Virus genome (UHGV): UHGV-0256341
Source: a virus
DNA length: 29,892 bases
Direction: 5' to 3' (one strand)
In this document: piece by piece, positions 11,320-29,892 of the stretch
Layout: every line of letters starts with the position of its first letter
How positions within the stretch are numbered: the first letter of the stretch is position 1
Position numbers and translations under genes: made by a program
The notes under the pieces: model-generated
The model's input: the letters and a program-made list of their open reading frames with translations, nothing else
What the model was told of the DNA's origin: nothing
The model's database searches: none

Positions 11320-11846
11320 CAGATAAGCTCCACTGTGCAGTGCGGCGCATCCTGCACCCGGCTGATGGCCCAGCGGGCGTCACGCCACAAATCACCGCTG
11401 GCTTCCGCCAGTTCCTCGCCCCGCTTCACACCGGACGCCGTGGCGTCATAGTCCTGGTATCGTTCGTTGAGCATGGCGCGTGCCCAGCAGTAAACCGCGT
11501 TGAAATAGTGCTGAATGCGCTCACTTTTGCCGTCCAGCTGTTCCGCCGGAACCTCTGCCAGCGAGGCATACCCCAGCATCTGCTGGCGTCTGCGAAACTC
11601 ATACAGCTCTGCGTTGACCTCCGAAATTGCCGACAGCGCAACCTGCTTTAAACGCGGCTGCGTCACCGTGCCGTCAGTGCGCATCACGCTGCGAAACTCC
11701 GACAGGTCCACATCAGGCCAGAACGGCGTATTCCTGATGATTTCCGCCTGTTCCGGTGCCTGTTCTGGCGCAACAAACTTCATGCTGCTTTCTCCTGAAA
11801 TAGAGGGCGGTGGACGGGGTTTTGATGTGGCAGTGCCTTTCGCCAC
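11319..11846 (-). CDS. L: Head completion/stabilisation protein, P2 gpL-like
   Basis: 175 aa between M and X. Confidence 0.8.
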   Translation of the reverse strand: MAKGTATSKPRPPPSISGESSMKFVAPEQAPEQAEIIRNTPFWPDVDLSEFRSVMRTDGTVTQPRLKQVALSAISEVNAELYEFRRRQQMLGYASLAEVPAEQLDGKSERIQHYFNAVYCWARAMLNERYQDYDATASGVKRGEELAEASGDLWRDARWAISRVQDAPHCTVELI

Positions 11847-11878
11847 CCCGTGCCGCCCGTGCGCGGGGGCACGTTCTG

Positions 11879-12529: not shown

Positions 12530-12532
12530 GGG

Positions 12533-13591
12533 TTACGCTCCGGCTTCTGCTGCAGCGGCGCTGAAATCGCCAATCTGGATGTTTTCCACCAGTGCGGCGC
12601 AGCGGTAGTCCTCAACCACATAGGCTTCGTTAACGGATTCAAAATTTTCAATCCGGTCACGTTTCGGGTTGTCGATAACTGAACGGCGGCGGGTGTCTTC
12701 CTGCCAGTAGATGGACAGGTTATCCAGACGGGTGATCAGCAGCGCATTCGGCGGGAAGAACGGCGCACGCACGGCCTGCAGGCCACCCATGCGTTTCTGA
12801 CTGATGATCATATCGGCAGCCAGTTTTTCACTGTTTTCCTGCTCTTTGTTGACCAGCGGGAAATACTTGTCTGACAGCAGTTCACGACCGCAAATCACCA
12901 CCAGATCGTCATCGTCCTGGTAGACCACATCGATAAGCTCATTGACGGCATCCATCACTACGGCGTCCAGGTTGGCATATTCGCCACCTTTCCCGACTTT
13001 CACCGCGCCCGGAGTGGTTTCACCGCCCGTGGTGGTGCTGCCCATGACGTGATCCGGTGCATCCTCACGGATTTTCTGCAGCCAGCCTTTGTTTACATCC
13101 TGCAGCAGCGGGTTTTCACTACGGTTGGAGGTTTTCGCACGCTTCACGCCGTTAAAGCCGATCATGATGCGGTCCAGTGCCTGACGTTTCACGATGGCGT
13201 CACGGATGCGCACCTGGAAATCCTGAAACTTCGCCCACAGGTCCAGCTTCGCGTAGGTCAGCACCGTGTCAAAGTTGGTCTGCTCGCATTTATATTCCAC
13301 ATCAACCATCAGCGTCGGATCGACAGGCTCACGCTCTTTCGCGGTGGTGTCAGTGGTTCCGGCAATGGTGCTGCCAACACCCAGCCCCAGCAACTGACCA
13401 GACTGCTCAGTCACTGGCGTGACGTTAATCAGCGTCAGGAAAGCGGCGGACTGCTGGATCTGGTCTTCCAGCGTCTGCTGTACAGACGGCTCTACAGTGA
13501 ACTTGCTGGACAGTTCTTCAACTGCCACACCGTTCAGACGCGCCAGCTGCTGCAGGTAAGCGTTAAAAGCAAAGCGGGTATTCTTCTTCAT
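12533..13591 (-). CDS. N: Major capsid protein, P2 gpN-like
   Basis: 352 aa in the O-N-M order. Confidence 0.9.
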   Translation of the reverse strand: MKKNTRFAFNAYLQQLARLNGVAVEELSSKFTVEPSVQQTLEDQIQQSAAFLTLINVTPVTEQSGQLLGLGVGSTIAGTTDTTAKEREPVDPTLMVDVEYKCEQTNFDTVLTYAKLDLWAKFQDFQVRIRDAIVKRQALDRIMIGFNGVKRAKTSNRSENPLLQDVNKGWLQKIREDAPDHVMGSTTTGGETTPGAVKVGKGGEYANLDAVVMDAVNELIDVVYQDDDDLVVICGRELLSDKYFPLVNKEQENSEKLAADMIISQKRMGGLQAVRAPFFPPNALLITRLDNLSIYWQEDTRRRSVIDNPKRDRIENFESVNEAYVVEDYRCAALVENIQIGDFSAAAAEAGA

Positions 13592-13607
13592 CGGGTTTTG
13601 TGCTCCA

Positions 13608-14441
13608 TCAGCAATTGGTCAGAGTGTCAGCGGGGGCGTTACCGCCTGTTGCACGCTGGCGGTAGTCCTGGCGGCTGTCTTCATGACTCAGCTTATTCAC
13701 CAGTTCATTAAAGGCGGTTTGCTGCTTCTGCAGAGCAGACTCCAGTTCAGACAGGCGTTCTTCCTGCTCAGACAGAGATTTTTCGGTTCGCGCGCTCAGG
13801 TTTTGCTGCTCAGTGGCGACCAGCTCCACGGCCTTATGCACATCAGAGAACCGGGCGTCATCGGACTGCTCTTTTTTGGTGAACAGCGCCGTGACGCGGG
13901 AAAACAGGGACGGTTTGTCGTCCTGGACTTCCTCCAGTTCGATCACCGTTTCCTCTGCAGCGGTAAAGAGATTGGCAGGATTCTGCTTGCGGTTTGCCAG
14001 CGGGTTATGGGCTGCACTGGCGCTGAATGTCAGCATTTCAGTGCCCAGACTGGCAGGGTCATCAGTGGCAGCCAGGCCGACCAGGTAGGCTTTGCCCGTA
14101 TCAGCGAACTTCGGGCTGACTTCCATAGAGGTGAATAATTTCTGGCCTTTTTTCACCAGTTCCACCAGGGACTCCGTTGGCTCAACGTCGGCATACAGCG
14201 CCATCTTGCCTGCCAGCGGACCTTCCGTGATTTCCTCAGCAAACAGCGCCGTCACCTTGCCGTAGCGGTTAAAGGTGCTGTCCGGCAGATAAGACTTGAT
14301 GTGCTCAAGGTTAATCAGCGCGGTATACACCGCCGGGTTGTAGCTGGCTGCCATCTGTTCCAGCCATTCACGCTGGATTTCGCGTCCGTCGGTGGTGGCA
14401 CCTTCCACCCCGATGCGAAAACGCTTTGCTTTCACTGTCAT
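13608..14441 (-). CDS. O: Capsid scaffolding protein, P2 gpO-like
   Basis: 277 aa with an acidic coiled-coil-like C-terminal region, divergent from P. Confidence 0.85.
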   Translation of the reverse strand: MTVKAKRFRIGVEGATTDGREIQREWLEQMAASYNPAVYTALINLEHIKSYLPDSTFNRYGKVTALFAEEITEGPLAGKMALYADVEPTESLVELVKKGQKLFTSMEVSPKFADTGKAYLVGLAATDDPASLGTEMLTFSASAAHNPLANRKQNPANLFTAAEETVIELEEVQDDKPSLFSRVTALFTKKEQSDDARFSDVHKAVELVATEQQNLSARTEKSLSEQEERLSELESALQKQQTAFNELVNKLSHEDSRQDYRQRATGGNAPADTLTNC

Positions 14442-14519
14442 GAGCCGTGCTCCGTTAAAAAAAACTTACTGGAGCCTTATGGTTGCGGTGATGGGGGTAG
14501 TGAAACAATGCGCGGTATT

Positions 14520-14537
14520 TGTACCGACAACCACACA
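14520..14537. promoter_or_regulatory. Putative Ogr-dependent late promoter element (TGT-N12-ACA) in the divergent O/P intergenic region
   Basis: TGTACCGACAACCACACA between the divergent O and P starts. Confidence 0.35.
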
Positions 14538-14583
14538 AACCGCAGGCGGGGAAAGCCTTCATTCAAGGCTGTAGGTTTGTGCC

Positions 14584-16350
14584 ATGAACACCACACTGAC
14601 ACCCGCAGATCTCGATCCCCGTCGGCAGGCCATGCTGCTGTACTTTCAGGGATACCGCGTAGCCCGCATTGCTGAAATGCTGGGCGAGAAAGTTGCAACC
14701 GTTCACAGCTGGAAAAAACGCGACAAGTGGGGTGACTATGGGCCGCTGGATCAGATGCAGCTCACCACCGCCGCACGCTACTGCCAGCTCATTATGAAGG
14801 AGCACAAAGAAGGGAAAGATTTCAAAGAGATTGACCTGCTGGCGCGCCAGTCGGAGCGCCATGCGCGGATCGGCAAGTTTAACAATGGCGGCAACGAAGC
14901 CGACTTAAACCCTAACGTCGCCAACCGCAACAAAGGCCCGCGTCGTCAGCCGGAAAAGAACGTTTTCACCGATGAACAGATTGAGAAGCTGGAAGAAATC
15001 TTCCATTCCTCCATGTTCAACTACCAGCGCCACTGGTGGGAAGCCGGAAAAACCAACCGCATCCGCAACCTGCTGAAGTCACGCCAGATCGGCGCGACCT
15101 TCTATTTTGCCCGTGAAGCCCTGATTGACGCCCTGCTAACCGGGCGTAACCAGATTTTCCTTTCCGCCAGCAAGGCACAGGCCCACGTCTTTAAGCAGTA
15201 CATCATCGACTTCGCCAAAGAAGTGGAGGTGGAGCTGAAAGGCGATCCGATAGTGCTTCCTAACGGGGCCACGCTGTACTTCCTCGGCACCAATGCCCGC
15301 ACGGCCCAGAGTTACCACGGCAACCTGTATCTGGATGAATATTTCTGGATACCGAAATTCCAGGAGCTGCGCAAAGTGGCTTCCGGTATGGCTATTCACA
15401 AAAAATGGCGACAAACCTATTTTTCCACGCCATCCAGCCTGACACACAGTGCTTATCCGTTCTGGTCCGGTGCGCTGTTCAACCGTGGGCGCAACAAAGC
15501 CGACAAGGTGGACATCGACCTGTCCCACAGCAATCTGGCCCCCGGCCTGCTGTGCACAGACGGGCAATACCGCCAGATAGTCACCGTGGAAGATGCGGTG
15601 CGCGGCGGCTGTAACCTGTTCGACCTCGACCAGCTACGCATGGAGTACAGCCCGGACGAATACCAGAACCTGCTGATGTGCGAGTTCGTGGACGATCTCG
15701 CGTCCGTGTTCCCGCTCAGCGAGCTGCAAGCGTGCATGGTGGACAGTTGGGAAGTCTGGACCGACTTTCATGCACTGGCCCTGCGCCCGTTTGGCTGGCG
15801 CGAAGTGTGGATCGGTTATGACCCGGCAAAAGGTACGCAGAACGGCGACAGTGCCGGATGCGTGGTGGTGGCACCGCCAGCCGTGCCGGGTGGTAAGTTC
15901 CGCATTCTTGAGCGTCACCAGTGGCGCGGGATGGACTTCCGCGCCCAGGCTGACGCCATCAAAAAACTGACCGAGCAGTACAACGTGACCTACATCGGCA
16001 TCGACTCGACAGGTGTCGGCCACGGGGTTTACGAGAACGTGAAAGCGTTTTTTCCAGCCGTCCGGGAGTTTGTCTACAACCCCAACGTTAAAAACGCCCT
16101 GGTACTCAAGGCCTACGACATTATCAGTCACCGTCGTCTGGAGTTTGACGCCGGACACACCGACATAGCGCAGTCATTTATGGCAATCCGTCGCGCCACC
16201 ACCGCCAGCGGCAACCGCCCAACCTATGAAGCCAGCCGCAGCGAAGAAGCCAGCCATGCCGATCTGGCCTGGGCAACAATGCACGCACTGTTTAACGAAC
16301 CGCTGCAGGGCGAGTCCGCCAATACCAGCAATATTGTGGAGATTTTTTGA
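14584..16350 (+). CDS. P: Terminase large (ATPase) subunit, P2 gpP-like
   Basis: 588 aa, divergent from O and followed by the portal gene. Confidence 0.9.
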   Translation: MNTTLTPADLDPRRQAMLLYFQGYRVARIAEMLGEKVATVHSWKKRDKWGDYGPLDQMQLTTAARYCQLIMKEHKEGKDFKEIDLLARQSERHARIGKFNNGGNEADLNPNVANRNKGPRRQPEKNVFTDEQIEKLEEIFHSSMFNYQRHWWEAGKTNRIRNLLKSRQIGATFYFAREALIDALLTGRNQIFLSASKAQAHVFKQYIIDFAKEVEVELKGDPIVLPNGATLYFLGTNARTAQSYHGNLYLDEYFWIPKFQELRKVASGMAIHKKWRQTYFSTPSSLTHSAYPFWSGALFNRGRNKADKVDIDLSHSNLAPGLLCTDGQYRQIVTVEDAVRGGCNLFDLDQLRMEYSPDEYQNLLMCEFVDDLASVFPLSELQACMVDSWEVWTDFHALALRPFGWREVWIGYDPAKGTQNGDSAGCVVVAPPAVPGGKFRILERHQWRGMDFRAQADAIKKLTEQYNVTYIGIDSTGVGHGVYENVKAFFPAVREFVYNPNVKNALVLKAYDIISHRRLEFDAGHTDIAQSFMAIRRATTASGNRPTYEASRSEEASHADLAWATMHALFNEPLQGESANTSNIVEIF

Positions 16351-17375
16351 TGGGAAAGAGTAAGAAAAACCGCGCTGCGGCGACGAACCAGATCCAGCAT
16401 AAAAACCAAACTTCAGCCGAAGCATTCAGCTTCGGTGATCCCGTTCCTGTTCTGGACCGCCGCGAATTACTGGACTATGTGGAATGCGTAAAGATGGACC
16501 GCTGGTATGAGCCACCCGTAAGTTTTGACGGACTGGCGCGAACATTCCGCGCCGCCGTACACCACAGTTCACCGATTGCAGTAAAGTGCAACATTCTGAC
16601 CAGCACCTACATCCCTCACCCGCTGCTCAGCCAGCAGGCGTTTTCACGTTTTGTGCAGGACTATCTGGTTTTTGGTAACGCCTACCTGGAGAAACGCACG
16701 AACCGATTCGGTGAAGTTATCGCCCTTGAGCCTGCGCTGGCAAAATACACCCGACGCGGATTAGACCTAGATACCTACTGGTTTGTGCAATACGGCATGA
16801 CCACGCAGCCGTATCAGTTCACGAAAGGCAGCATTTTTCATCTGATGGAACCGGACATCAACCAGGAGATCTACGGCCTGCCCGGCTATCTTTCTGCCAT
16901 CCCATCCGCCCTGCTCAACGAGTCCGCCACGCTGTTCCGCCGAAAGTATTACATTAACGGTAGTCATGCAGGCTTCATCATGTACATGACCGATGCCGCG
17001 CAGAACCAGGAAGATGTGAACAACCTCCGCAATGCGATGAAAAGTGCCAAAGGCCCTGGCAACTTCCGCAACCTGTTTATGTACTCGCCTAATGGTAAAA
17101 AAGACGGACTTCAGATTATCCCGTTGTCAGAAGTCGCAGCGAAGGATGAGTTTCTGAATATCAAGAACGTGAGCCGTGATGACATGATGGCGGCACACCG
17201 CGTGCCGCCGCAAATGATGGGAATTATGCCTAATAATGTCGGGGGGTTTGGGGATGTGGAGAAGGCTAGCAAGGTATTCGTAAGAAACGAATTGATGCCC
17301 CTGCAGAAACGATTGCAGGAACTAAATAACTGGTTGGACGAAGAAGTGCTCAATTTTTCAACCTATGAGCTTTAG
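16347..17375 (+). CDS. Q: Portal protein, P2 gpQ-like
   Basis: 342 aa; its start overlaps the P stop. Confidence 0.9.
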   Translation: MMGKSKKNRAAATNQIQHKNQTSAEAFSFGDPVPVLDRRELLDYVECVKMDRWYEPPVSFDGLARTFRAAVHHSSPIAVKCNILTSTYIPHPLLSQQAFSRFVQDYLVFGNAYLEKRTNRFGEVIALEPALAKYTRRGLDLDTYWFVQYGMTTQPYQFTKGSIFHLMEPDINQEIYGLPGYLSAIPSALLNESATLFRRKYYINGSHAGFIMYMTDAAQNQEDVNNLRNAMKSAKGPGNFRNLFMYSPNGKKDGLQIIPLSEVAAKDEFLNIKNVSRDDMMAAHRVPPQMMGIMPNNVGGFGDVEKASKVFVRNELMPLQKRLQELNNWLDEEVLNFSTYEL

Positions 17376-17384
17376 TTTTAAAAC

Positions 17385-17402
17385 GAAGACCATTAGGTCT
17401 TC
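17385..17402. terminator. Hairpin between convergent Q and retron RT (possible bidirectional terminator)
   Basis: GAAGACC-ATTA-GGTCTTC stem-loop with T-rich flank; the RT stop codon lies inside the stem. Confidence 0.45.
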
Positions 17403-18355
17403 GCTTTATTTAAAGGGTTCTTTCCATATTTTTTTTCTAATTTGCTAATATAAGTTATTAATCTTCTATGGCTTTTTGAATCCACACTTAAAATAAATGA
17501 CAACCATCCCCTAACGTGTTCTATCTCAGAAGACTTACCGCAAAATATATGATGTATCTTTGCTCTAATTTCTTTATATTTTTCTCTACCTATCCCAACT
17601 TTCTCTTGTGAAATAACTAAACCTGTAACTTTCCTCTGACTACGAGGCCCACTAATACAAGTTTTTTTTGAGTTAATAACCAATCCTTCACTTGGGATTA
17701 TAGAAAATAAAAAATCACGTGCTTTAACAACCTTTTTCATAGACTGTGCAGATAAGGTGAGATCATCGGCATATCTCGTATATATCAAGCCCCGACTACC
17801 TGCATAACCCTGAATACGATAATCAAGTTTAGAACATATTAGATTAGCTAATTTAGGTGATGATGGAGCACCTTGTGGTAGCAGATTTTTATAACAACAT
17901 ATTTTTGTCAAAACTGAAGATATTAGTCGATTATAACCAAGAGAATGGAACACTCCAAAAACTTTGTTAGCAGTTAAACTTGGGAAAAAATCCTCCAAAT
18001 CAATATTCAGTATAAAGTTTGCCCCAATATGCGGGGTAGCATTATTCAAAATAGATTGGTGCTTTTCAAATCCAATAGAAAAAGGAGATGACGACAGTTT
18101 ATCTAAAATGTTACGTAGAACCCATCCTTGTAAGGCTTTAAGTTCTCGAGAAGGTTGGTAAATGGTTCTCATTCTCTTCTCTGGGCCTTTCTTTTCTACA
18201 GTGTAGATCCTATAGCGAAAATCAGCTGTATAGATTAACAACCGAAGTGTTTCAACAGATATGCGAGTCGCCTTAGACATGTCATGCAAATTGTTCATGA
18301 CAGGTAGGCCGAGATTTCTCAATCTAAAAGTGTTCAAATATTCAGCGGATTTCAT
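17393..18355 (-). CDS. ret: Retron-type reverse transcriptase (matches retron Ec86/Eco1 RT from memory)
   Basis: 320 aa with retron hallmarks: NAxxH (NATPH), LEDFFPS, PQGAPSSPKLANL, catalytic YADD and the VTG motif. It lies immediately 3' of an msr-msd element. Confidence 0.95.
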   Translation of the reverse strand: MKSAEYLNTFRLRNLGLPVMNNLHDMSKATRISVETLRLLIYTADFRYRIYTVEKKGPEKRMRTIYQPSRELKALQGWVLRNILDKLSSSPFSIGFEKHQSILNNATPHIGANFILNIDLEDFFPSLTANKVFGVFHSLGYNRLISSVLTKICCYKNLLPQGAPSSPKLANLICSKLDYRIQGYAGSRGLIYTRYADDLTLSAQSMKKVVKARDFLFSIIPSEGLVINSKKTCISGPRSQRKVTGLVISQEKVGIGREKYKEIRAKIHHIFCGKSSEIEHVRGWLSFILSVDSKSHRRLITYISKLEKKYGKNPLNKAKT

Positions 18356-18361
18356 GAAAGT

Positions 18362-18530
18362 TGCGCACCCTTACGTCAGAAAAAACGGGTTTCCTGGTTG
18401 GCTCGGAGAGCATCAGGCGATGCTCTCCGTTCCAACAAGGAAAACAGACAGTAACTCAGATTCAATGCAGGATGCCGAAACAACATCCAGAGGTTGACCT
18501 TAATGATAAACCTCTCGCTAAGGGTGCGCA
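18362..18530 (-). ncRNA. msr-msd: Retron msr-msd non-coding RNA (msDNA template)
   Basis: Perfect 12-bp terminal inverted repeats (TGCGCACCCTTA ... TAAGGGTGCGCA on the minus strand) flank a long internal palindrome (GGAGAGCATC...GATGCTCTCC); the sequence matches the Ec86 ncRNA as I remember it. Confidence 0.9.
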
Positions 18531-19441
18531 TACGGAATCTTATCATAGTTAAATGTTGATTTTCTACGGTTTTCAAAATTCATAATCTCAAGCCGCAATC
18601 GGTCAAGTGTCTTTCTATCAAAGACGCTCCTAACATAGCTAGCCCCCAAAGCAGTGACCTGATAACCATCAGTCATTTGAAGTATTTTTCGTTCATTTAT
18701 TAGACGAGAAACAACGGATCTAACAATAATTTTAGATAAAACATCATCTTGCTTTATCGCTTTAAAAGCTAGTTCACACAGTGTGCGGTAGTTGACACTA
18801 TCCAGTAAATAGATACAAGGCAATAGAAACCGCTCTGCGTATAATATATTTCCAATATCTTTTGATACTTTATTTTCTTTCCTAACCTTCTTAATAGATG
18901 CCATTAATTTTTTATATAATCGTAATTTTCTGGCAACATCAATGGATGAATCACACATTTCTTTTAGTTCATTTGAACTACAACGCAAAACAGATTTTGA
19001 ATTAAACTTACGCAACAGGCGAACAGGACCATAGTTAATAAAGCTACGTTTTGATTTAAATTTTGCATCTTGAATGCAAATCAACTTTCTCCTTAAGTTT
19101 TCATTATTAGAGAACGCACCAAGCTCTGTGAAAGACCCCGGACTTTCAGGAAATAAAATTATTACATCGACAGCTTCAGCCAGAATATTTTCTAAACTTA
19201 AAAGGCTATGCTGCCCTTGACCAGCCAAAAGATCATCAAATAGATCTTCTGGATAAAATATATCAACATCACTGAACTTTGCTAAAAATTGTGATAATTG
19301 ATGACGCCAAGATTGATGATTAGCAACGTCACCACCACATAGAAAAATGGTTATTTTAATATTAGCTCCTCGATAGAAGCCTTTCTTTGTGAGATGTCCT
19401 ATAAGCTGTTGTTGCTGCTCATCGGTAAATTTTTTATTCAT
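18518..19441 (-). CDS. Retron effector protein (NDT-like / DNA-binding type, as in retron Eco1)
   Basis: 307 aa encoded immediately upstream of msr-msd in the same operon. The N-terminal half has a Rossmann-like glycine-rich pattern consistent with a nucleoside deoxyribosyltransferase-like fold; the C-terminal half is basic. Confidence 0.8.
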   Translation of the reverse strand: MNKKFTDEQQQQLIGHLTKKGFYRGANIKITIFLCGGDVANHQSWRHQLSQFLAKFSDVDIFYPEDLFDDLLAGQGQHSLLSLENILAEAVDVIILFPESPGSFTELGAFSNNENLRRKLICIQDAKFKSKRSFINYGPVRLLRKFNSKSVLRCSSNELKEMCDSSIDVARKLRLYKKLMASIKKVRKENKVSKDIGNILYAERFLLPCIYLLDSVNYRTLCELAFKAIKQDDVLSKIIVRSVVSRLINERKILQMTDGYQVTALGASYVRSVFDRKTLDRLRLEIMNFENRRKSTFNYDKIPYAHP

Positions 19442-19464
19442 AATCTCCCCGCTTTTTTTTCTAC

Positions 19465-19493
19465 TTTATACATCAAGTTATGAATAGATCCAA
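19465..19493 (-). promoter_or_regulatory. Putative sigma70 promoter of the retron operon
   Basis: Minus strand has TTGGAT, a 17-bp spacer, then TATAAA, followed by a GGGGAGA ribosome-binding site before the effector ATG. Confidence 0.3.
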
Positions 19494-19514
19494 TCTCCAT
19501 ACCACATGGCGCGC

Positions 19515-19534
19515 GCTCGTATCCCCGCCACGCC
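19515..19534 (-). other. Putative cos site (cohesive-end core) of the P2-like phage
   Basis: Minus strand reads GGCGTGGCGGGGATACGAGC, similar to the P2/186 cohesive end (GGCGAGGCGGGGAAAGCAC in P2) as I recall it. Position is on the Q side of the genome as in P2. Confidence 0.45.
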
Positions 19535-19578
19535 TGCCCGCTTTGTGTAGTGGTTTTCATGCACCTGCATGACATAAG

Positions 19579-19603
19579 CAAAAGCCCGCCAGCTCTGGCG
19601 GGC
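19579..19603 (-). terminator. Rho-independent terminator downstream of the HNH gene
   Basis: GC-rich perfect inverted repeat GCCCGCCAG/CTGGCGGGC followed on the minus strand by TTTTGCTT. Confidence 0.5.
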
Positions 19604-19716
19604 ATCAGCAAAAACGATCCTCAAACGATCATGCGATTTCATGCGGCATAGACATGCGTTGGCAAAAATGTACGAAATACTCAGCTTATAGGAAATGGTC
19701 TTTTTCCAACCTCCAG

Positions 19717-20436
19717 TTAGCCAAAGCAGAAACCAATATTGCAATTTGAAACTCCACAGTTGTGAAATTGATGTGGACCTACTCTTAGCTTGTGTTCGTC
19801 TCCTACAATCCGAGTCCCCTTAACCAACATATCTAATCTTTCCACAATCAATCTTTCAGGCGCATCAACTTTAATAATTAAACGAGGACCTTTCCTTTTT
19901 TCTATAATAGTTATTCTAGGACCGACAACCTGAACATCCCAATGCCTTGCACTACAAACCCACTCATTCTTAATTAATTCAAGATTAACAATACCTTGAC
20001 TATCGTAAAATTTACCCGAAATAAGAAAAGCATTATTTTCTTTTTCAATGGTTAACAATGGCTCATTTTGAAACATTATTGGTACAGTACAGGATTCAAA
20101 CGTCGCACCACCAAATATTATTGTTGGATGCCTATCAGAAAAGTCCAATATATCGGCCACATTCCCTTTTTGTAAGGCTGCAGGAGATTCCATTGCTTTA
20201 ATTATTTTCTCTTTAGAGTAAAGACGTTTCGTTACTTTCGCATGGCACGTAGGACAAAGTAGTGCTATTGCATTTGGAGAGTGCTCCTTTGCATCAGCGT
20301 ATGTGGGAATTACATGCTCATACTCAACAATGGGAGAAGCACAAACAACGCAACCGAAGCCACAGCGCTGCCTTACCTCCAGTTTTACAGGTTCAGGAAT
20401 TGTTCTAGATAACCCATGCTTGTTAATAGTTGTCAT
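19717..20436 (-). CDS. HNH-endonuclease-domain protein with a C-terminal domain of unknown function
   Basis: 239 aa; N-terminal CGFGCVVC ... EYEHVIP ... NAIALLCPTCH matches the HNH zinc-finger nuclease pattern. AT-rich gene located between cos and replication gene A, where P2 has old/tin. Confidence 0.75.
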   Translation of the reverse strand: MTTINKHGLSRTIPEPVKLEVRQRCGFGCVVCASPIVEYEHVIPTYADAKEHSPNAIALLCPTCHAKVTKRLYSKEKIIKAMESPAALQKGNVADILDFSDRHPTIIFGGATFESCTVPIMFQNEPLLTIEKENNAFLISGKFYDSQGIVNLELIKNEWVCSARHWDVQVVGPRITIIEKRKGPRLIIKVDAPERLIVERLDMLVKGTRIVGDEHKLRVGPHQFHNCGVSNCNIGFCFG

Positions 20437-20558
20437 AACCTTACCTTAAAACTTCGAGAAACCTTTTATATATTGATACTATATCAACTAACGCCTCGCA
20501 CAGCTCGTTGTTCAACCTTGCTGACGCCAGAAGCAAGTTCAGACGCCAGCAACGTTTC

Positions 20559-20793
20559 TTAATGCAGCCAGCTGTCGTCTTCCCACACCTTCTGCATAAT
20601 TTTCATCACTTGCTTCCTTTCTTCGTCCAGTTGCAGTCCGGTCAGTTCCACACCGTTAGAGCTACCTTTGCGGATGCGAATTACCGTTTTTGGATACAGG
20701 GGGCGCAGATTGCGGTAAAGCTCGGATTCAAGGGCGTCCAGGGTAGACTGGCTAATCTTCTGCTCTTTATCGATCATTATTTCAATGCGCATA
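20559..20793 (-). CDS. DinI-like protein
   Basis: Start taken at the internal ATG preceded by a GAGGTG ribosome-binding site. The 78 aa product (MRIEIMIDKEQ ... VWEDDSWLH) resembles DinI in length and in N- and C-terminal motifs. Confidence 0.6.
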
Positions 20794-20802
20794 AAAGTCA
20801 CC

Positions 20803-20991
20803 TCAGCTGATGACATCCATTGAGCGGTTGTATTCGTGGGTTCTGATTTTTGCCATGAGTTCATCTGTCAGTTCAGAAACCCACTGCAAAGCCAGCCCCT
20901 TCTCTTCATCACTACACTCACTAGCCGCTACAAGTTTAAGAAAAAAATCAATGCGCTGGAGCTTCAAAGACTCCAAAAAATAGTCCTGCAT
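20803..20991 (-). CDS. Small hypothetical protein (62 aa)
   Basis: Internal ATG with a strong AGGAGG ribosome-binding site 5 nt upstream; the longer 96 aa ORF start has none. Confidence 0.45.
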   Translation of the reverse strand: MQDYFLESLKLQRIDFFLKLVAASECSDEEKGLALQWVSELTDELMAKIRTHEYNRSMDVIS

Positions 20992-21144
20992 CTTTCCTCC
21001 TATGACACCACAAGCAATACTGTATGTATAACCACTGTTTATATTTACAGTATATAATAATCTTACTGATGTAAAACGTTTTTTTACGTTCATCAGCCTG
21101 ATATGCCTGGTATTATTAAGAGCACGAATTGTTAACCCGCGTAA

Positions 21145-23559
21145 TTAATACAGGTTTCGCCACTTATCATCTTCCTGCAAACGCTGGTTCCGATAGAAGA
21201 TACGCAGGCCTGCTCCTGACGGAATACTGCCGCCGCGAAGGAGTAAATCGACCTCTTTCTCGCTGCCATCAAATCCTCTGGACTTCAGTTCATAGACGAG
21301 CTGCTGTCGCTGATGGTCTGTAATTCGCTGTTTGTAGTCTTTACGCCGTTTCGGTTTCACCAGGCGTAACCTTGCAGCTAGTTCCCGGCGCTCTTTTTTG
21401 CTCATACTGTGCAGGTAATCGTGCAACGCCTTGTCATCCATGCGGGTAATGTCCGTCCTGGTATCCCCATCAGCTGATTTGTCTTTCCCTTGTTGGTTCA
21501 AATTTTCAGCAAGGGGACAGTTATTGCCACGAGTCCAAGGGGCGCAAGCGCCCTGGTCGGCTGCCGCCTCCTGAACGTCAACGGCTTTACGAACCATTTT
21601 CCACTTCACTGCATGAGTGCAGATCTTGCCCTCTGCAATGGGTGACCAGATGCCATAAATACGAATGCCGTGATCGCCATAGGCGGTCGGCTCTTCGTTG
21701 ATTTCATAAGCGGTTCTGATGAGGTGATATTTACGGGGAACCAGTACGCCGCCCTGCTTCATGATGTAGGTGGCAAAACAACCAGCATCAGCAGCAGCCA
21801 GGATGGCATCAAGGCGCGGGTTATCCAGTACCGGCGCACCTGCTTTTTTGTCCCCCTTTTGCCTTACCGCCTGACCAGCCAGCAATCGCAGTTCACGGTA
21901 AGCCTGACGCCCCGGAATGCCAAAGAAGCGGAATTGCTGAACACGATGCAAAGACGCCCAGGCATTCACGTATTCAGCGTTATCACGCAGAGATTTACCC
22001 GTTTCCTTGCTGATCTCGCCAGCCAGACCACGCCCGTCAATGTTCTTACTGATGTATTTCGCTATGTAGCTTGTCGGCGTTCCTTTGCGCGGGTTAATCA
22101 GCTCAGACTTAAAGCGCGGCCCCGTGTTATTGCCCAGCTCCTCGCGGTCTTCACGGATAGCAAACTTACGCAACAATGCTGTAATGGCGCGGCGGTCTTT
22201 TTTGCGCATGAAACACAACAGGTGCCAGTGAACTGTGCCGTCGTGATGCGGCTCAGCCACCCGCACGCCATACCAGCGCAACCCGGCTTTGTGCATCGCC
22301 TTACGAAATGCAGCAAACATACCGACCAGATAATCGCTGCTTTGTCTTACCGTCGCATTTGTCCAGGTCGGATTGGGCCTGCCGTTATTTAGCGTGGAAT
22401 GGAAACGTGACGGACAGGTGATGGTGTAGAAAACGGCGCAGTCACCGCGCATTTCCGCGATAAGCTCCAGACCTTTAACACAGGCCATCATCTCATTGCG
22501 GCGATGCGCAGGGTTGCTGCTGCTGGCGTTTACCACATCCTCCATGTCTAGCGTGTCGCCGTCTTCGTTCACCAGTTCATGAGAACGGAAAAACTCCAGC
22601 GACTTACGGCGCTGCTCACGTTTATGCAACACGGCTTCATAGCTGACATAGGGAGATGCTTTTTTGCTGACAAGGCAGACAGCACGCAACTGCTCTTCCC
22701 GCCATTCGCAACGCATCTTCCATAATTTCCGATACCACCAGTCGGCGCACAACATACGCGCCAGCGAACCCGGAATGAGTTCATAGGGCACGGGTTTACG
22801 GCGGTTTCTTTTCCGACGGAGTTGCTCAAACGCAGGCGGGATGACATCCAGACGCAGGGTTTCCGCTGCCACCCTTTCCCATGTATTGCGGATTTCTTCT
22901 GGCTTAACGTCATCGGTGGCATACAAATCGCCACAAGCGGCATCAAGGCACATACTCATATGCGCAGCTACCAGGGTGGACAGGCGTTTCACCTGATCCT
23001 GACTCATTTCAGGCAGGATCAGCAGGCCGTCCAGCCCTTCATGGCTTGCCATAAAGCGAAAAGATGCAGATAGCTGACTGTCGCGTACATGCTCCAGTCG
23101 TTCCAGACATGGCTTAATCGTCTCACGTAAATAGCGGGAATAAGCCTTTGGCCTGCCCAGGCTGCTGAAGTATTCAATACGTTGCATCAGCGGCTTGCTG
23201 ATATGGGAAGGCTGGGCGTTGACGTCCGCCAGAATGACCATATCCGGATTAAAACGCTGCTGCTCATGCGCCAGCTTTGCCCGACTAATGAGCTTATCCT
23301 GTTCCATTTCGCGCTGGACAGGATCACGGGATTCATTAAAGAAATAACGCTCCCAGACCTGATCACTCAGCGCCTCACGGCGCAGCTGTTCCTGCTCGTT
23401 ATCGGCAGCGTACAGAGTGATCAGGTTTGAAAGCGTAGAAACCGGCGCAACTTCCACCGGGTCCAGATAAGGGTTAATGGCCTTTTTCGGGCTGTTCCAT
23501 GAGAACGATGCGGCAGCTTCGTTAAAGCCGCAGCAGTTGTTCATATCGGCATGACTCAT
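21145..23559 (-). CDS. A: Replication initiation endonuclease, P2 gpA-like (rolling-circle initiator)
   Basis: 804 aa, the largest early gene; start overlaps the stop of the upstream methyltransferase gene. Confidence 0.85.
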
Positions 23560-24413
23560 GCATGTACTCCGTACACGGCAGAACTATCCACGCCACGCGA
23601 ATAATCAAATCCCACCCAGCAGCGCGGCCCGGAAACAGCAATGATTTCTGTTGCTGATTTACCCTCGCCAGCTGCCACACCGATGCTGCGTTTTGCCTTG
23701 ATGTAGTGGTGAGTAAAATTGCGATACAGCGAACGGATCAGGGATGTGTCACTGTTAGAAACAATGACCGGATGTCCTTCTGATGACCGATGTTCAAGAA
23801 CAGATGCCAGGTGATACTGGTCATCTTCAGTGAAGCCGTCAGTGTGATAGCCGGAAAACGTACCGTCATACGGCGGATCGCAATACACCACATCCCCCGC
23901 CTTCAACATCGCCAGCGTTTCATCAAAGCTGGCGCAGATAAACGTTGCTCGCTGGGCCTTTTCTGCAAATGCGCGAATTTCTTTTTCAGGGAAATACGGA
24001 TTTTTATAATTACCGTAGGGAATGTTGAAATGCCCGCTCTTGTTATAGCGACATAAACCACGGTAACCGTGACGATTGAGATACAGGAAATATACCGCTT
24101 TCATGAAATCAGTAATTTCAGTTGAGTAATTAAACTCCTGCCTTATGTTGTAATAAGCCATCTCCCTGTTTGCGATCTCAAATAAAACTCTGGCGCGAGA
24201 TATAAACGATTCACAATCAGCGGCAACCTTTTTATAGAGGTTGATTAAATCAGGATTAATATCCGCAACCAGATAGCTGGGATAATCCGTCTCCATCATC
24301 ACAGCACAGGAACCCGCGAAAGGTTCAACCAGTCGCGGGCCAGCAGGAAGATGTTTTTTTAGTTCGGACATTATGGCAGTTTTATTTCCCGCCCATTTCA
24401 GGATGGTGCTCAT
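23556..24413 (-). CDS. DNA adenine methyltransferase (Dam-like, N6-adenine)
   Basis: Motif I FAGSC and motif IV DPPY are present. Start taken at the internal Met of [11 protein letters not shown], which abuts the TraR-like stop; the longer ORF starts at 24473. Confidence 0.85.
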
Positions 24414-24637
24414 ACAGCACCTCCGTTGTAATGTTTGCCTTTCAGCTCTGCGATTTCCTGACAGGTAATGCAAAGCTGCACACCCGGAATGGCACGGCGG
24501 CGTGCTGGCGTAATTGGCGCTTCACACTCAATGCAAAGCACGCGGGACACGCCCGGCGTTTTGGCACGGGCAGCACGGATATGGCGTTGGCGTTCTTCTT
24601 CAACGCGCTGCTGTACGAGATCCATTGCATCAGCCAT
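24410..24637 (-). CDS. DksA/TraR-family C4 zinc-finger protein
   Basis: 75 aa with CxxC ... CxxC (CIECEAP ... CITCQ) and a coiled N-terminus. Confidence 0.7.
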   Translation of the reverse strand: MADAMDLVQQRVEEERQRHIRAARAKTPGVSRVLCIECEAPITPARRRAIPGVQLCITCQEIAELKGKHYNGGAV

Positions 24638-24876
24638 TAGTGGATCTCCTGCGCTTCGTTCTGGATTGCTTCAGCAGTCACACGAAGCAGTTCTGCCGCT
24701 TCGACGTGGGTTAGCTGGCGGGATGTGATATGACACGCCAGGCTATCAAGGCGAGCTGCCATTGCTTCAGCCCTTGCCCGGCGTTCTTCCAGACGAGCCT
24801 CTGTCAGTAAAATATTAAGCCCTGCGTCATCCGGTCCGGTTTTGGTCGAGAGGGTTTCAATATTACGCATAATCAA
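24637..24876 (-). CDS. Hypothetical early-region protein
   Basis: 79 aa ORF in the early operon, translationally coupled to the next gene. Confidence 0.5.
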   Translation of the reverse strand: MIMRNIETLSTKTGPDDAGLNILLTEARLEERRARAEAMAARLDSLACHITSRQLTHVEAAELLRVTAEAIQNEAQEIH

Positions 24877-24937
24877 TTCTCCTGAATTTAGATAAAGGGA
24901 TGCCCGGCGGGTTTACGCCATTAATTTCATTAGTTGG

Positions 24938-25279
24938 TTAATTCGGCATGGTTAGCCGTCTGGGAAATAAGCTCACCACTGCACGAAAATGATTCATTGC
25001 TTTAATCAACTCCCGCTTTTCGTCAGTGGTCAGCTCATTAATGCTGATGCTATGACGTTCAGCTGGAATTTTTGCCATAAAGAATATAGCAGCCAGTGCC
25101 CGTTTATTTTGTTCGCTATTAATATCCCGTGAATCACGCATATCTTTAATAAACCGCTCAAGCTCTGACTCAATATTCAGGCCAAAAACTTTCGCCCTTA
25201 ACTCCGCAATGTGATTAAGTCCATTCAGGCGTTCACCGGGGCTTAATGGAACAGTCGCCGCAGTGCCTTCAATAGCCAT
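24938..25279 (-). CDS. Hypothetical early-region protein (first gene of the early operon)
   Basis: 113 aa ORF. It does not resemble P2 C or Cox as far as I can recall. Confidence 0.5.
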   Translation of the reverse strand: MAIEGTAATVPLSPGERLNGLNHIAELRAKVFGLNIESELERFIKDMRDSRDINSEQNKRALAAIFFMAKIPAERHSISINELTTDEKRELIKAMNHFRAVVSLFPRRLTMPN

Positions 25280-25476
25280 TTGTTCCCCCGTTTTTTCGTA
25301 GATAGTTCTGCCAGCAATTCATCTTGTGAACGGCACGGATGCCAGCGTTTACCATCCTCCCCCATGATCCAGCCGTGACCCGCTGAATGAATCTGCGCCC
25401 TGAATTCTGGTAAAAAACATTATCGTAAATTACCATTTCTTTCAACAGCTTACTAGTAAACAAGAAGTTAGCCTCC

Positions 25477-27162
25477 GTGAATATAAACGTCGCCGAATTG
25501 TTAAATGGGAATTACATTCTGTTATTATTTGTGGTCCTCGCGCTTGGGCTATGTCTCGGAAAGTTACGACTTGGTTCGATCCAACTGGGTAATTCCATTG
25601 GCGTTTTAGTCGTATCGCTGTTATTAGGCCAACAACATTTCAGCATTAACACCGATGCGCTTAATCTTGGCTTTATGCTGTTTATTTTCTGTGTTGGGGT
25701 TGAAGCCGGACCGAACTTTTTTTCCATTTTTTTTCGCGATGGGAAAAATTACCTAATGTTAGCACTGGTGATGGTTGGCAGTGCGCTGGTGATCGCCTTA
25801 GGGTTAGGTAAGCTGTTTGGCTGGGATATTGGCCTGACGGCCGGTATGTTAGCAGGCTCTATGACGTCGACACCGGTTCTGGTCGGTGCTGGCGATACAC
25901 TGCGTCATTCCGGCATGGAAAGCAGGCAGCTCTCACTGGCACTGGATAATCTGAGCCTCGGGTATGCCTTAACCTATTTAATCGGTCTGGTGAGTTTGAT
26001 TGTTGGTGCGCGTTACTTGCCGAAATTGCAGCATCAGGACTTACAGACCAGCGCCCAGCAAATCGCCCGCGAACGTGGCCTGGACACTGATGCCAACCGT
26101 AAGGTTTATTTACCGGTGATCCGCGCCTATCGCGTCGGCCCGGAGCTGGTGGCCTGGACCGACGGCAAAAATCTGCGTGAACTGGGTATTTATCGACAAA
26201 CCGGCTGCTACATTGAACGTATTCGACGTAACGGGATTCTGGCAAATCCAGACGGTGATGCCGTGCTACAAATGGGCGATGAAATAGCGTTGGTAGGCTA
26301 TCCCGACGCCCATGCCCGACTCGATCCCAGCTTCCGTAACGGTAAAGAAGTTTTCGATCGTGACCTTCTCGACATGCGTATCGTCACTGAAGAAGTGGTC
26401 GTTAAAAACCATAACGCTGTAGGTAAACGTCTCGCACAACTGAAGTTGACCGATCACGGTTGCTTCCTTAACCGCGTCATTCGTAGCCAGATTGAGATGC
26501 CGATAGATGACAACGTCGTGCTTAACAAAGGTGACGTTTTACAAGTCAGCGGTGATGCCCGTCGCGTAAAAACCATCGCCGATCGCATCGGCTTTATCTC
26601 GATTCACAGCCAGGTCACTGACCTGCTGGCATTTTGCGCCTTCTTTGTTATTGGGCTGATGATCGGGATGATCACCTTCCAGTTCAGCACATTCAGTTTC
26701 GGCATGGGGAACGCTGCCGGGTTGTTATTCGCCGGAATTATGCTGGGCTTTATGCGTGCTAACCACCCGACCTTCGGTTACATTCCGCAGGGTGCATTAA
26801 GCATGGTGAAAGAGTTCGGCTTGATGGTGTTTATGGCAGGCGTTGGTCTGAGCGCCGGTAGCGGTATTAATAACGGCCTGGGCGCGATTGGCGGTCAGAT
26901 GTTGATTGCCGGATTGATTGTCAGTCTGGTGCCCGTGGTTATCTGTTTCTTGTTCGGTGCTTATGTATTGCGAATGAACCGCGCGCTGTTGTTCGGCGCA
27001 ATGATGGGCGCACGTACCTGCGCGCCGGCAATGGAGATCATCAGTGATACAGCTCGCAGTAACATCCCGGCGCTGGGCTATGCGGGCACCTATGCAATCG
27101 CCAACGTCCTGCTGACGCTGGCAGGGACAATCATCGTCATGGTATGGCCAGGATTAGGATAA
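25477..27162 (+). CDS. ybjL: Putative transport protein of the AAE (YbjL/YidE) family
   Basis: 561 aa with multiple transmembrane segments flanking a central soluble region; GC content is typical of the host chromosome; the sequence looks like E. coli YbjL from memory. Confidence 0.8.
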
Positions 27163-27274
27163 AACTGAAGTTGCCCTGAAAATGAAATTTTTTTGCACAA
27201 CCGCAGAACTTTTCCGCAGGGCATCAGTCTTAATTAGTGCCACTGCTTTTCTTTGATGTCCCCATTTTGTGGAG

Positions 27275-27320
27275 CCCATCAACCCCGCCATTTCGGTTCA
27301 AGGTTGATGGGTTTTTTGTT
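27275..27320 (+). terminator. Putative rho-independent terminator
   Basis: CCCATCAACC ... GGTTGATGGG stem followed by TTTTTTGTT. Confidence 0.4.
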
Positions 27321-27397
27321 GCCTGAAATTTATGCTCTTTAAAATCATGATGTTAGAAGCACTGTTTTTTAACGATGGCGACAAAATGGCGGCAGCG

Positions 27398-27616
27398 TCA
27401 AAGAGAGAGCGCCACCTGTCCTGATTTCATTGGATGCGGCTGAACCGGATTTGACTCTTTTGGCGTTGCAATCGAACGAACAAAAGTTTCATGAGTAACA
27501 AAAGTATGGCTGCAGTTAATGTTCTGGCACTGGTTGTAACGCTCTTTGGTCAATGAAGATACCTGAAAACTGCTGCGAGTATGGGCGGCACTTCCACACA
27601 GTGGGCAAATCATCAT
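27398..27616 (-). CDS. ogr: Late transcription activator, Ogr-like zinc-finger protein
   Basis: ORF is 27398..27649. The likely start is the Met of MICPLCGSAAH, giving about 72 aa; the CPLC ... CQN.NC pattern matches P2 Ogr. Confidence 0.85.
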   Translation of the reverse strand: MMICPLCGSAAHTRSSFQVSSLTKERYNQCQNINCSHTFVTHETFVRSIATPKESNPVQPHPMKSGQVALSL

Positions 27617-27706
27617 TTTTCGAGTTCTCCCCATTTTTGCTAAATTCACAATAATGATACCGCATTATTCCATTTTGAAAACTTAAAAGTTCTCCATTGC
27701 GAAGAA

Positions 27707-28807
27707 TCATTCCATTTCGAAATCATCAATCTTCACTTCAAGCTCCAGACTGGTCGTAAAACCGTTATCCGGGCTGACAGTATGCGTCAGGGTGGTAATA
27801 GTCCATTCCGCATCATCTATCGGCTGTTTAAAGCCACTGACTTTCACTGGCATTTCCGTGTAGAGATCTGCCCGCCCTTCCGCCAGTTGTAGCGAGAATG
27901 ACGCAACGCCGCGTTGCAGGCGTTCCCACTGCATTTTCGCCGCTCGTTCGGCGTTGCTCCGGTTGGCATAAGTGCGATTAAGTACCAGCACGTTTTCATC
28001 CGTACCCACCAGGTAATCGCCCTGCTTCGCTTCCGGCTCTTTCTTCTGCTTCTTAGTTCTGCGCTTACGCTTCACCGTGGTGCTTTCTTTCTTCGCAGGT
28101 TCGCGGGTATGCAACCAGCTGGCAATTACGCCCGTGTAGGCTCCGCGATCTGCCAGGGTAAATCGGTGACTGTCGCCGTCCTTGCGTGTGATAGTGATCA
28201 CTGGCAGAGGTTTACCAGTGGCGCTTTTGCCCTGCCCCTGCCTGATGAATAACAGATTGCCATTTTTCACCGACGCGATGGCACCGTACTGTCGCGCCAG
28301 CCGCATCAGAAAACTGCCGTCACTCTCATTAGTCTGGTCTATATGCTCCACGGGCTTATCCGACAGGTCTTTACCCAGTGCCATCTTCAGCTTGTGCCGC
28401 GCGGCTATTTCCTTCACCACTTCCCCGACGGTGGTCTTATGCCACGATTTTTCACGGCGGGTATTCAGCGTTTCCCGAAAATCAGCACTTCGCGCCCGGA
28501 TAGTCAGGCGGTCCGGTGCGCCAGTGTGTTCAATCTCGTCCACTGTGAATGCCCCTTTCGGGAAAAGCGGCTGCCCCTTCCAGCCCAGCGCCAGCGTAAT
28601 GACCGCACCACGGCGCGGCAGCACGATTTTTCCATCGGCGTCGTCCAGCTCCAGATCAAGCTGGTCCGCTTCAAAGCCCCGGTTATCCGTCAGCGTCAAA
28701 CTCATCAGGCGGTTATCCAGCACAGTGGTGATATCCCTGCCCTCAATACTGATGCTGAATGCGGGAGTTTTGTTGCCTTTGTTAAGCAGTTCTGAGCTGA
28801 AATTCAC
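27707..28807 (-). CDS. D: Tail protein D, P2 gpD-like
   Basis: 366 aa between U and ogr. Confidence 0.85.
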   Translation of the reverse strand: MNFSSELLNKGNKTPAFSISIEGRDITTVLDNRLMSLTLTDNRGFEADQLDLELDDADGKIVLPRRGAVITLALGWKGQPLFPKGAFTVDEIEHTGAPDRLTIRARSADFRETLNTRREKSWHKTTVGEVVKEIAARHKLKMALGKDLSDKPVEHIDQTNESDGSFLMRLARQYGAIASVKNGNLLFIRQGQGKSATGKPLPVITITRKDGDSHRFTLADRGAYTGVIASWLHTREPAKKESTTVKRKRRTKKQKKEPEAKQGDYLVGTDENVLVLNRTYANRSNAERAAKMQWERLQRGVASFSLQLAEGRADLYTEMPVKVSGFKQPIDDAEWTITTLTHTVSPDNGFTTSLELEVKIDDFEME

Positions 28808-29289
28808 GACAGCAGCCCTCCCACCGTTTTACTGATATCACTTAAGGCAGACGTTGCCGTGTCCTGCAGATTATTCAGTTGCGCACTGAGATCACCGAAC
28901 ATATCGGACAGGGATTCATCCACCCGTTTGAGCGACAGGGTGAACTCAATCCGGCGCGGCATACCGTCGCGGAAAAACTCCGTTTTAGTCTGATTCAGTC
29001 CCTCAATCACATACATGCCGTAAATCGTGCCGCTGCCTTCAATCAGGGGCCATGCTTTCCCCTGTTCTGCCATCTGCTCCAGTGCCAGCAACGACAGCCT
29101 GCCGCCTGTTATCTCCGGCATAAGAACACCGGAAAGCGTCAGCATGTCGTTTTCCGGTCCCAGAAACTGCGTGGACGGACGTCGGTTTACCCGACTGTTT
29201 GCCGCATGTCGCCAGCTGCGTTGATACTGCAGTTCCTGATACGGAACGGTGCGCAGCATAAACACGTACAATCCCAGCACCATCATCAT
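28804..29289 (-). CDS. U: Tail protein U, P2 gpU-like
   Basis: 161 aa between T and D. Confidence 0.8.
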   Translation of the reverse strand: MMMVLGLYVFMLRTVPYQELQYQRSWRHAANSRVNRRPSTQFLGPENDMLTLSGVLMPEITGGRLSLLALEQMAEQGKAWPLIEGSGTIYGMYVIEGLNQTKTEFFRDGMPRRIEFTLSLKRVDESLSDMFGDLSAQLNNLQDTATSALSDISKTVGGLLS

Positions 29290-29892
29290 GCGTCGTATCC
29301 CCCCTGATCGCTGTAGTTACTCCTGGCTTTTGCCTTCAGCCTGCGTTCACGTTCATCAAGCTGGCGTGCCACCTCCCGCGCAATATCCTGCGCACTTTGT
29401 CCTGGCTGCGTCTGAATGATGATCTGCGTCGGTGCCTCAATCCGTTGAACGAGCGGCACAGTGGCTGCGCGACTCACAATTGCTTCTCCACCTTTCGCGG
29501 GAAGTGCCAAAGGGTGCAACGGTGGAAGCTCTGCTGGCGCGGCAGCAACGCCCATCATTCCGGCAACAACGGCAGCCAGTGCAGCTGTATTTCTCCGGCT
29601 GGTCACATTTGCCGGGCCGTTAACAATTTCCGGCCCGTTTTCACCGACGATGCCAAACTGCCCGCGCGGGATATACCCGCCGCTGTCATACATCCCCGCA
29701 AAGCCATATCCCCATGATGGAAAACCACCCGATGGCATCATCACTTTGCCGTCTGCATTCACCGTCGCAGGTTGCTGACGCGTCACGCTTTCCGGTAGTT
29801 TTGCCTTTGCGGCCTCTTTACTGACAATGCCGAGTTTCTCCAGCAACCAGGAAACGCCGGATTTCAGGGAGTCCAGCGGATGCATGACCATA
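29286..29892 (-). CDS. T: Tail tape measure protein, P2 gpT-like, C-terminal part only (gene runs off right edge)
   Basis: Open frame to the window edge with Ala/Gly/Pro-rich sequence; directly upstream of U. Confidence 0.7.
   Translation of the reverse strand, partial: MVMHPLDSLKSGVSWLLEKLGIVSKEAAKAKLPESVTRQQPATVNADGKVMMPSGGFPSWGYGFAGMYDSGGYIPRGQFGIVGENGPEIVNGPANVTSRRNTAALAAVVAGMMGVAAAPAELPPLHPLALPAKGGEAIVSRAATVPLVQRIEAPTQIIIQTQPGQSAQDIAREVARQLDERERRLKAKARSNYSDQGGYDA

Follow-up and report, generated by a model that had tools for sequence, protein, structure and literature searches.

A single homology-free joint between fil and the ybjL flank in the 186-type prophage sequence UHGV-0256341

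The UHGV virus genome UHGV-0256341 is a stretch of 29,892 nucleotides (the window; all positions are those of the whole stretch) in which ybjL, a host-like transporter gene, stands between the late-activator gene ogr and the early operon of a prophage. Based on its open reading frames (ORFs) and Pfam domains, nearly the whole window is a P2/186-family prophage in minus-strand reading, and its only abnormal feature is one discontinuity, which falls inside the early gene fil. The best explanation is that the window spans the single novel joint of a head-to-tail unit, circular or tandem, of ~32.4 kb of an Escherichia coli lysogen chromosome. We put the probability that this joint arose in vivo, whether in a circle or in a tandem form, at roughly 0.55. 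By its sequence, the parent of the unit is a 186-type prophage in the terminator of the rybB small RNA (sRNA) gene. The prophage, its rybB attachment (att) site, and ybjL hold nothing unusual and have been described before; the homology-free joint is most plausibly a junction left by aberrant excision or by duplication, a new instance of a known event.

The joint lies between positions 25380 and 25381, where phage sequence ending in CCGTGACC is followed by host sequence beginning with CGCTGAATG. When the parental sequences were placed side by side in a three-way alignment, the phage parent read CCGTGACC and continued with GTAATG, and the host parent read TTTAGGTG and continued with CGCTGAATG. 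The two have no base in common at the flush joint (0 nt of microhomology). The parental prophage, found in assembly GCA_040591735.1 (here L038), is 99.993% identical to the window over positions 11145 to 25380, with 1 mismatch in 14,236 bp, and this identity stops exactly at 25380; host identity starts at 25381 (query base 782 in the megablast search). Translations and tblastn searches revealed that residues 22 to 66 of the 66-amino-acid Fil protein are kept at 100% identity (positions 25243 to 25380, minus strand) and that codons 1 to 21 are gone. Neither breakpoint coincides with a repeat, an insertion sequence, or a gene boundary. Recombination by Int at a secondary site was considered and set aside, since neither parental breakpoint resembles the att core when judged by eye.

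The module that should follow fil is missing. L038 and ten further loci that encode the same DUF5347 protein, the product of the last complete gene of the early operon (positions 24938 to 25279, minus strand), all continue with Fil, CII (Phage_CP76), a 73-amino-acid Apl-like protein, CI, and Int and then reach the host gene rcdA. Relative to L038, the window has lost 3,051 bp, from attL to fil codon 21, comprising cII, apl, the pR/pL promoters, cI, int, and attL itself, and has gained in exchange 1,926 bp of host DNA and a 14-bp core. In agreement with the original prediction, which had reported no integrase, repressor, or excisionase gene, tblastn searches that used the Int, CI, Apl, and CII proteins of phage 186 and those of L038 detected none of them anywhere in the window. 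The spacing that it had given for ybjL was likewise recovered, as 198 bp separate the start of the DUF5347 gene (25279) from the start of ybjL (25477; ~200 bp predicted) and 236 bp separate the ybjL stop (27162) from the end of the ogr/B-like ORF (27398; ~235 bp predicted). Its proposal that ybjL sits where an int-C-cox module should be was only partly borne out. Although ybjL does lie between ogr and the early operon and the module is indeed absent, the framing misleads, in that ybjL is chromosomal flank and the module to be expected is of the 186 type (int, cI, apl, cII, fil), located between fil and rcdA in the parent. That the discontinuity is a single point inside fil, that RybB is encoded between ybjL and ogr, and that the ybjL/ogr side is an ordinary attR had all been missed.

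Fragments of fil were also encountered elsewhere. A 40-amino-acid C-terminal Fil fragment starting with MGEDGK (positions 25243 to 25365, minus strand) is encoded by the first gene of short metagenome contigs in 32 blocks of the collection (loci L017 to L026). These contig starts are in part an effect of looking up exact products, and they also fit a position of fil at the boundary between conserved replication and variable immunity regions, which is prone to assembly breaks.

On the other side of the joint, positions 25381 to 27306 are E. coli chromosomal DNA in plus orientation, made up of 96 bp of the ybjM-ybjL intergenic region, ybjL, and most of rybB. The gene ybjM, normally 270 bp from ybjL, is missing from the window; just those 96 bp of intergenic DNA are kept before the sequence passes into the truncated fil gene. 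The host segment is identical to E. coli ATCC 8739 at 1,943 of 1,943 positions (25381 to 27323). ybjL itself (25477 to 27162, plus strand) encodes a 561-amino-acid protein with Asp-Al_Ex and TrkA_C domains (Pfam) that is identical to the K-12, ATCC 8739, and 20A24 proteins, which confirms its earlier description as a host-like AAE transporter. Positions 25381 to 27720 match thousands of E. coli chromosomes with identities of up to 99.8%, and many complete genomes carry ybjL-ogr-D at 99.8% identity.

The sRNA gene rybB is present at full length (27242 to 27320, plus strand), scoring 105.3 bits against a gathering score of 40 and covering model positions 1 to 79 of 79 (Rfam RF00110); the K-12 annotation puts rybB at the corresponding place. 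The gene probably keeps its published sigma-E promoter (GAACTT...TCTTA), as judged by eye. At the 3' end of the rybB terminator, the att core ATGGGTTTTTTGTT (27307 to 27320) is common to the window, the K-12 attB site, and both attL and attR of 20A24, and alignment revealed that host and phage sequences diverge past this core. The gene order in prophage-free K-12 is ybjM-ybjL-rybB-rcdA. In ATCC 8739, HS, 20A24, and others, ybjM and ybjL are followed by a prophage that starts with ogr-D-U-T and ends with cI and int beside rcdA. The ybjL/ogr side of the window is an ordinary attR in the rybB terminator, and ybjL is an unchanged chromosomal flank rather than a replacement module or a paralogue. 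The rybB noncoding RNA gene has been described as the insertion site of P2-like prophages in E. coli W, B, and Crooks, with the strain B prophage at rybB carrying retron Ec86 (PMC3032704).

The window corresponds to coordinates 12001 to 37451 of 20A24, which carries a rybB-site prophage, followed directly by coordinates 4950 to 9461. It is therefore a circular permutation of the 20A24 interval 4950 to 37451 without 9462 to 12000, which agrees with the original prediction of a circularly permuted window whose late operon wraps, with E/E' at the left edge and T-U-D-ogr at the right. Absent between the window ends are ~2,539 bp of E'/T, comprising most of T and part of E'. If the missing 2,539 bp of T match 20A24, the unit is ~32,431 bp long, equivalent to 96.6% of a parent phage genome estimated at ~33,556 bp. 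Positions 27324 to 29892 are identical to the annotated 20A24 locus (L006) at 2,569 of 2,569 positions (coordinates 6893 to 9461; 100.000%), and positions 1 to 2902 differ from it at one position (coordinates 12001 to 14902; 99.966%), whereas the other rybB-site prophages examined are 96 to 98% identical over both end parts. Because the two window ends share one nearest relative, they belong to one prophage lineage.

When the window was tested as a closed 29.9-kb circle, neither an overlap between its suffix and prefix nor internal repeats in T were found, and neither the complete E. coli genomes nor IMG/VR contained the hypothetical joint between its end and its start. Were the window closed on itself, the 2 leftover bases of E' and 1 base from the right end would complete a codon, and E' would be fused in frame to the final 201 codons of T. 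This frame, which we worked out from annotated coordinates, would arise one time in three by coincidence, and no record with that joint was found. The right end also coincides with contig ends of three metagenome assemblies, whose contigs begin at the codon where the window stops; this was rejected as a sign of a natural break point, being a selection effect of the exact-product look-up.

The parental order is ybjM-ybjL-rybB/attR, then the prophage (ogr, D, U, T, E ... Q, P, retron, cohesive-end site [cos], tum, A, dam, ..., DUF5347, fil, cII, apl, cI, and int), and then attL-rcdA. On this map, one break lies inside fil, 3.05 kb inside attL, and the other lies 96 bp upstream of ybjL, 1.93 kb outside attR, on the same strand. 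With the breaks placed in this way about the two att sites (1.9 kb outside one, 3.05 kb inside the other, same strand), cos kept, and an estimated length close to that of a phage genome, the geometry is that of aberrant excision. A homology-free break-and-join links the interior of fil to the point 96 bp upstream of ybjL; in this scheme, the faulty excision would have looped out the prophage together with its ybjL/rybB flank, as in lambda gal/bio. The classical aberrant-excision model, including the retention of cos, has been described (PMC6687093). The product would keep cos, the full set of late genes, ogr, and A/ori for replication, with ybjL and rybB as cargo, and would lose attL, int, cI, apl, cII, the beginning of fil, and pR/pL. 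Its estimated length, ~97% of that of the parent, should allow packaging. Since pR/pL, cI, apl, cII, and int are all lacking, the product is predicted to be replication silent, nonimmune, and helper dependent; with no early promoter, immunity, or integrase, it would be defective and could persist only with a helper prophage or after integrating by ybjL homology. The identical joint would also result from a tandem duplication or from the integration of such a genome into a lysogen by ybjL homology.

Several observations weigh against an in vivo origin of the joint. It is known from one sequence only and is a singleton among the collections searched: megablast searches with the joint region failed to find it in 5,426 complete E. 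coli genomes, INPHARED phages, or PLSDB plasmids, and the 34-nt joint sequence was absent from IMG/VR, JGI metagenomes, and GTDB representative genomes. Look-ups of exact products for ORFs that gene calling could yield at the joint or the window edge (the 40-amino-acid Fil fragment, antisense ORFs of 64 and 55 amino acids, and the 201-amino-acid T fragment) likewise returned no contig of ~30 kb. A product devoid of an early promoter and CI could probably neither replicate nor stay quiet alone, and a simple promoter scan detected no sigma-70-like promoter near the joint for the orphaned early operon; the sole site that it returned was a pB-like one upstream of ogr. A helper, for its part, would contribute wild-type junctions, at which a contig built from short reads should break. 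Moreover, 2.5 kb of T lies outside the window, so the length of the unit is an estimate, and false circularization has precedent at this locus, where public "circular plasmid" records are chromosomal pieces.

These points bear on the rival explanation that the joint was made in silico and that the source genome holds a normal rybB-site prophage, which we regard as quite possible, if short of probable. The original prediction had offered both a rearranged or defective prophage and a misjoined or circularized assembly, and both remain live explanations of the single joint, even as its further suggestion of two prophages is not supported. A linear contig running from upstream of ybjL to fil might have been taken for a circle, after which rotation or windowing carried the sequence across its origin; alternatively, a chimeric long read or a concatenation might have seeded a small contig. 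Such an artifact is favored by the uniqueness of the joint, by the apparent biological inertness of the product on its own, and by the three PLSDB "complete circular plasmids" (p13TMH22-1, pCombat13F7-1, and pZ1323HEC0475-2) that are chromosomal fragments with the same prophage and ybjL-side flank, and the window ends, which do not overlap, lend no independent support for closure. However, no k-mer is shared at the flush joint, so a misjoin in a de Bruijn or other k-mer graph is excluded, and nothing obvious would make a contig stop 96 bp upstream of ybjL and within fil. Nor would a random chimera be expected to join points 32 kb apart on the same strand, about one phage length from each other, and each within 2 to 3 kb of the prophage ends.

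That two separate P2-like prophages flank ybjL, with a deletion having stripped the left one of its immunity/integration end and of the host DNA on the ybjM side, is very improbable. While the window alone cannot tie the part from E to the truncated fil and the part from ogr to the truncated T to one copy, and several P2-like prophages are frequent in E. coli (with a median of 2 matching places per genome), the closest relative shared by the two parts argues for a single element whose ybjL/ogr side is simply the normal attR of that prophage. None of the genomes inspected had a P2-like att site or prophage on the ybjM side, and 0 of 5,426 complete genomes had the arrangement. Two prophages would still require the same illegitimate joint, plus the loss of the host genes from ybjM on. 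Scarcely credible is the idea that ybjL is phage-borne cargo, a moron or paralogue, of a viable lineage with a replaced int-repressor module. The place of ybjL between ogr and the early operon does mimic a module swap, but the 100% identity to the ATCC 8739 chromosome takes in the intergenic DNA, rybB, and the att core, fil is cut mid-gene with the early promoter gone, and no INPHARED phage record has ybjL beside this module. Because the host DNA is identical to ATCC 8739, YbjL is the K-12 protein, and the attR at rybB is normal, the phage-borne paralogue, which the original prediction had named as evidence that would count against its view, is excluded. The other arrangement that it had named in that capacity, intact int and C genes with ybjL outside normal att junctions, was found in every related genome inspected.

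Returning to an in vivo origin, the closest parallel is provided by the lambda gal/bio-type specialized transducing genomes, which reportedly go back to Morse, Lederberg, and Lederberg in 1956 and arise by aberrant prophage excision (reviewed in PMC6687093). Like these, the window combines a prophage with host DNA from one att side, lacks the genes of the opposite prophage end, has one normal att junction and one illegitimate joint, and keeps cos, with an estimated unit length close to that of the parent. Unlike them, it derives from a 186/P2-family phage at rybB and is known here from sequence alone rather than as packaged or transducing DNA. It would also be more crippled than lambda dgal, as the whole immunity/integration module and the early promoter are lost. 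We know of no natural specialized transducing genome of the P2/186 family that has been resolved at the sequence level, and narrow literature text searches surfaced no P2-family specialized transducing genome. RecA-independent tandem duplications share with the window a head-to-tail homology-free joint and a unit of tens of kilobases, but they give no reason why one end should fall a short way outside an att site and the other a short way inside the opposite one, or why the unit should have the length of a phage genome.

The Rybb* prophages of E. coli B, W, and Crooks (ATCC 8739) resemble the window in their att site, gene order, and the position of ogr beside rybB/ybjL, as well as in having a retron in a variable locus near cos, as with retron Ec86 of the strain B prophage (PMC3032704). 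They differ in that they have an intact attL-int-cI end beside rcdA and ybjM upstream of ybjL, neither of which is in the window. Coliphage 186 (NC_001317) shares the early operon with fil, DUF2732, TraR-like, and A genes, a B/ogr-type activator that closes the late region, a similar cos sequence, and, when the parent prophage is considered, CI/Apl/CII-type control. In contrast, 186 integrates at ileY rather than at rybB, its dhr gene and several nonessential early ORFs are replaced here by DUF5347 and dam, and its cI, apl, cII, and int genes have no counterparts in the window.

If the joint is real, it would represent a base-pair-resolved natural aberrant excision, or a prophage-anchored duplication, in a P2/186-family phage, and an sRNA gene that serves as an att site (rybB) would have been captured whole, along with ybjL, as cargo. 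A further step, in which the joint is both real and clonal, seems unlikely. The window would then derive from a natural defective 186-type transducing genome ("186d ybjL-rybB") that moves ybjL and rybB between E. coli strains and would be kept beside a helper prophage or integrated through ybjL homology; it would thereby carry a sigma-E-controlled, outer-membrane-regulating sRNA and a transporter gene from strain to strain. If the joint is instead an artifact, it would serve as a warning that prophage-plus-flank fragments filed as "circular" plasmids can mimic module replacement.

Three such records, listed in PLSDB as complete circular plasmids (NZ_CP019257.1, NZ_CP019246.1, and NZ_CP148327.1), are nonmobilizable chromosomal fragments of 36 to 45 kb. 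Each contains part of a rybB-site P2-like prophage along with ybjL, ybjM, and grxA, and reaches either pot/art or cspD. They may be remnants of assembly, or they may stem from amplified DNA of the prophage and its flank. We considered whether these pseudoplasmids start at cos, which might hint at in situ packaging, and rejected this, as there is no consistent pattern: p13TMH22-1 starts ~190 bp before cos, cos is 4.6 kb from the start of another, and pZ1323HEC0475-2 opens at the invertase gene of the prophage.

The one full-coverage megablast match to the joint region, in isolate AF44 (NZ_OZ547155.1), proved to be a different structure, an internally deleted prophage remnant. At positions 22327 to 22781 of this record, a D pseudogene and a dam pseudogene are joined across an internal deletion in the prophage at the rybB site. 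All late genes and A are removed, and ogr, early genes, two CI-type repressor genes, a KAP NTPase gene, and int stay between ybjL and rcdA.

The remaining genes of the window follow the P2-type late order (ogr/B, D, U, T, E/E', FII, and FI, with divergent Q-P and O-N-M-L head genes), and no tRNA gene was found in the window. To the right of the att core are the ogr/B-type late activator gene (27398 to 27616 or 27649, minus strand; Pfam Ogr_Delta on 27398 to 27649), D (27707 to 28807), U (28804 to 29289), and the last 606 bp of T (29286 to 29892), all on the minus strand, with T running into the right edge. From the left edge, the ORF list gives a partial E' (1 to 44) and the tail assembly gene E (59 to 361), both on the minus strand, in agreement with the GpE and tail assembly protein annotated in 20A24; the tape-measure gene T, expected to the left of E/E', is cut by the window edge. 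The late region as a whole spans positions 416 to 17375, as delimited by ORFs and by colinearity with the annotated 20A24 and ATCC 8739 prophages; the late gene order is colinear with annotated prophages at 99.9% identity. Within it are tail tube, sheath, baseplate, lysis, and head genes on the minus strand, a Hin/Cin-type serine invertase gene (2256 to 2828; Pfam Resolvase) adjoined by an invertible tail fiber segment, and the plus-strand genes for terminase P (14584 to 16350) and portal protein Q (16347 to 17375).

The cos site (GGCGTGGCGGGGATACGAG, 19516 to 19534, minus strand) was located by a pattern match and by an alignment of 95 bp with the joined end and start of phage 186, in which bases 1 to 19 are annotated as cos. 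A gene for a 239-amino-acid HNH protein follows (19717 to 20436), with a Tum/DinI-like region placed between this gene and A. The retained early (replication) operon, as defined by Pfam, annotated relatives, and identity to L038, occupies positions 21145 to 25279 on the minus strand. It includes the replication endonuclease gene A (21145 to 23559), a Dam methylase gene, a TraR/DksA-like gene (24410 to 24637), and a DUF2732 gene (24637 to 24876) ahead of the DUF5347 gene, all on the minus strand, with dam lying between A and the TraR/DksA-like gene.

Between cos and the portal gene, on the far side of cos from the HNH gene, lies a retron (17393 to 19441, minus strand) consisting of a reverse transcriptase gene (17393 to 18355; Pfam RVT_1) and a gene for a 307-amino-acid effector (18518 to 19441). 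Its G+C content is 34 to 40%, versus ~55% elsewhere in the phage. The effector is assigned to PF28093 (STM3845) in related loci and to the "retron St85 family" in RefSeq. At the same spot, related prophages carry other cargo, including DarT/Macro, KAP NTPase, AIPR, and TIR genes. A DUF6216 gene (8262 to 9068, ~36% G+C) lies on the opposite, plus strand between the baseplate V and tail completion genes; in ATCC 8739, this position is held by a P-loop ATPase gene (Sll1717 family), and it looks like a second variable cargo site. Finally, window positions 3782 to 4079 match 20A24 in inverted orientation at 91% identity, which fits an invertible host range switch beside the invertase gene (2256 to 4350 region).

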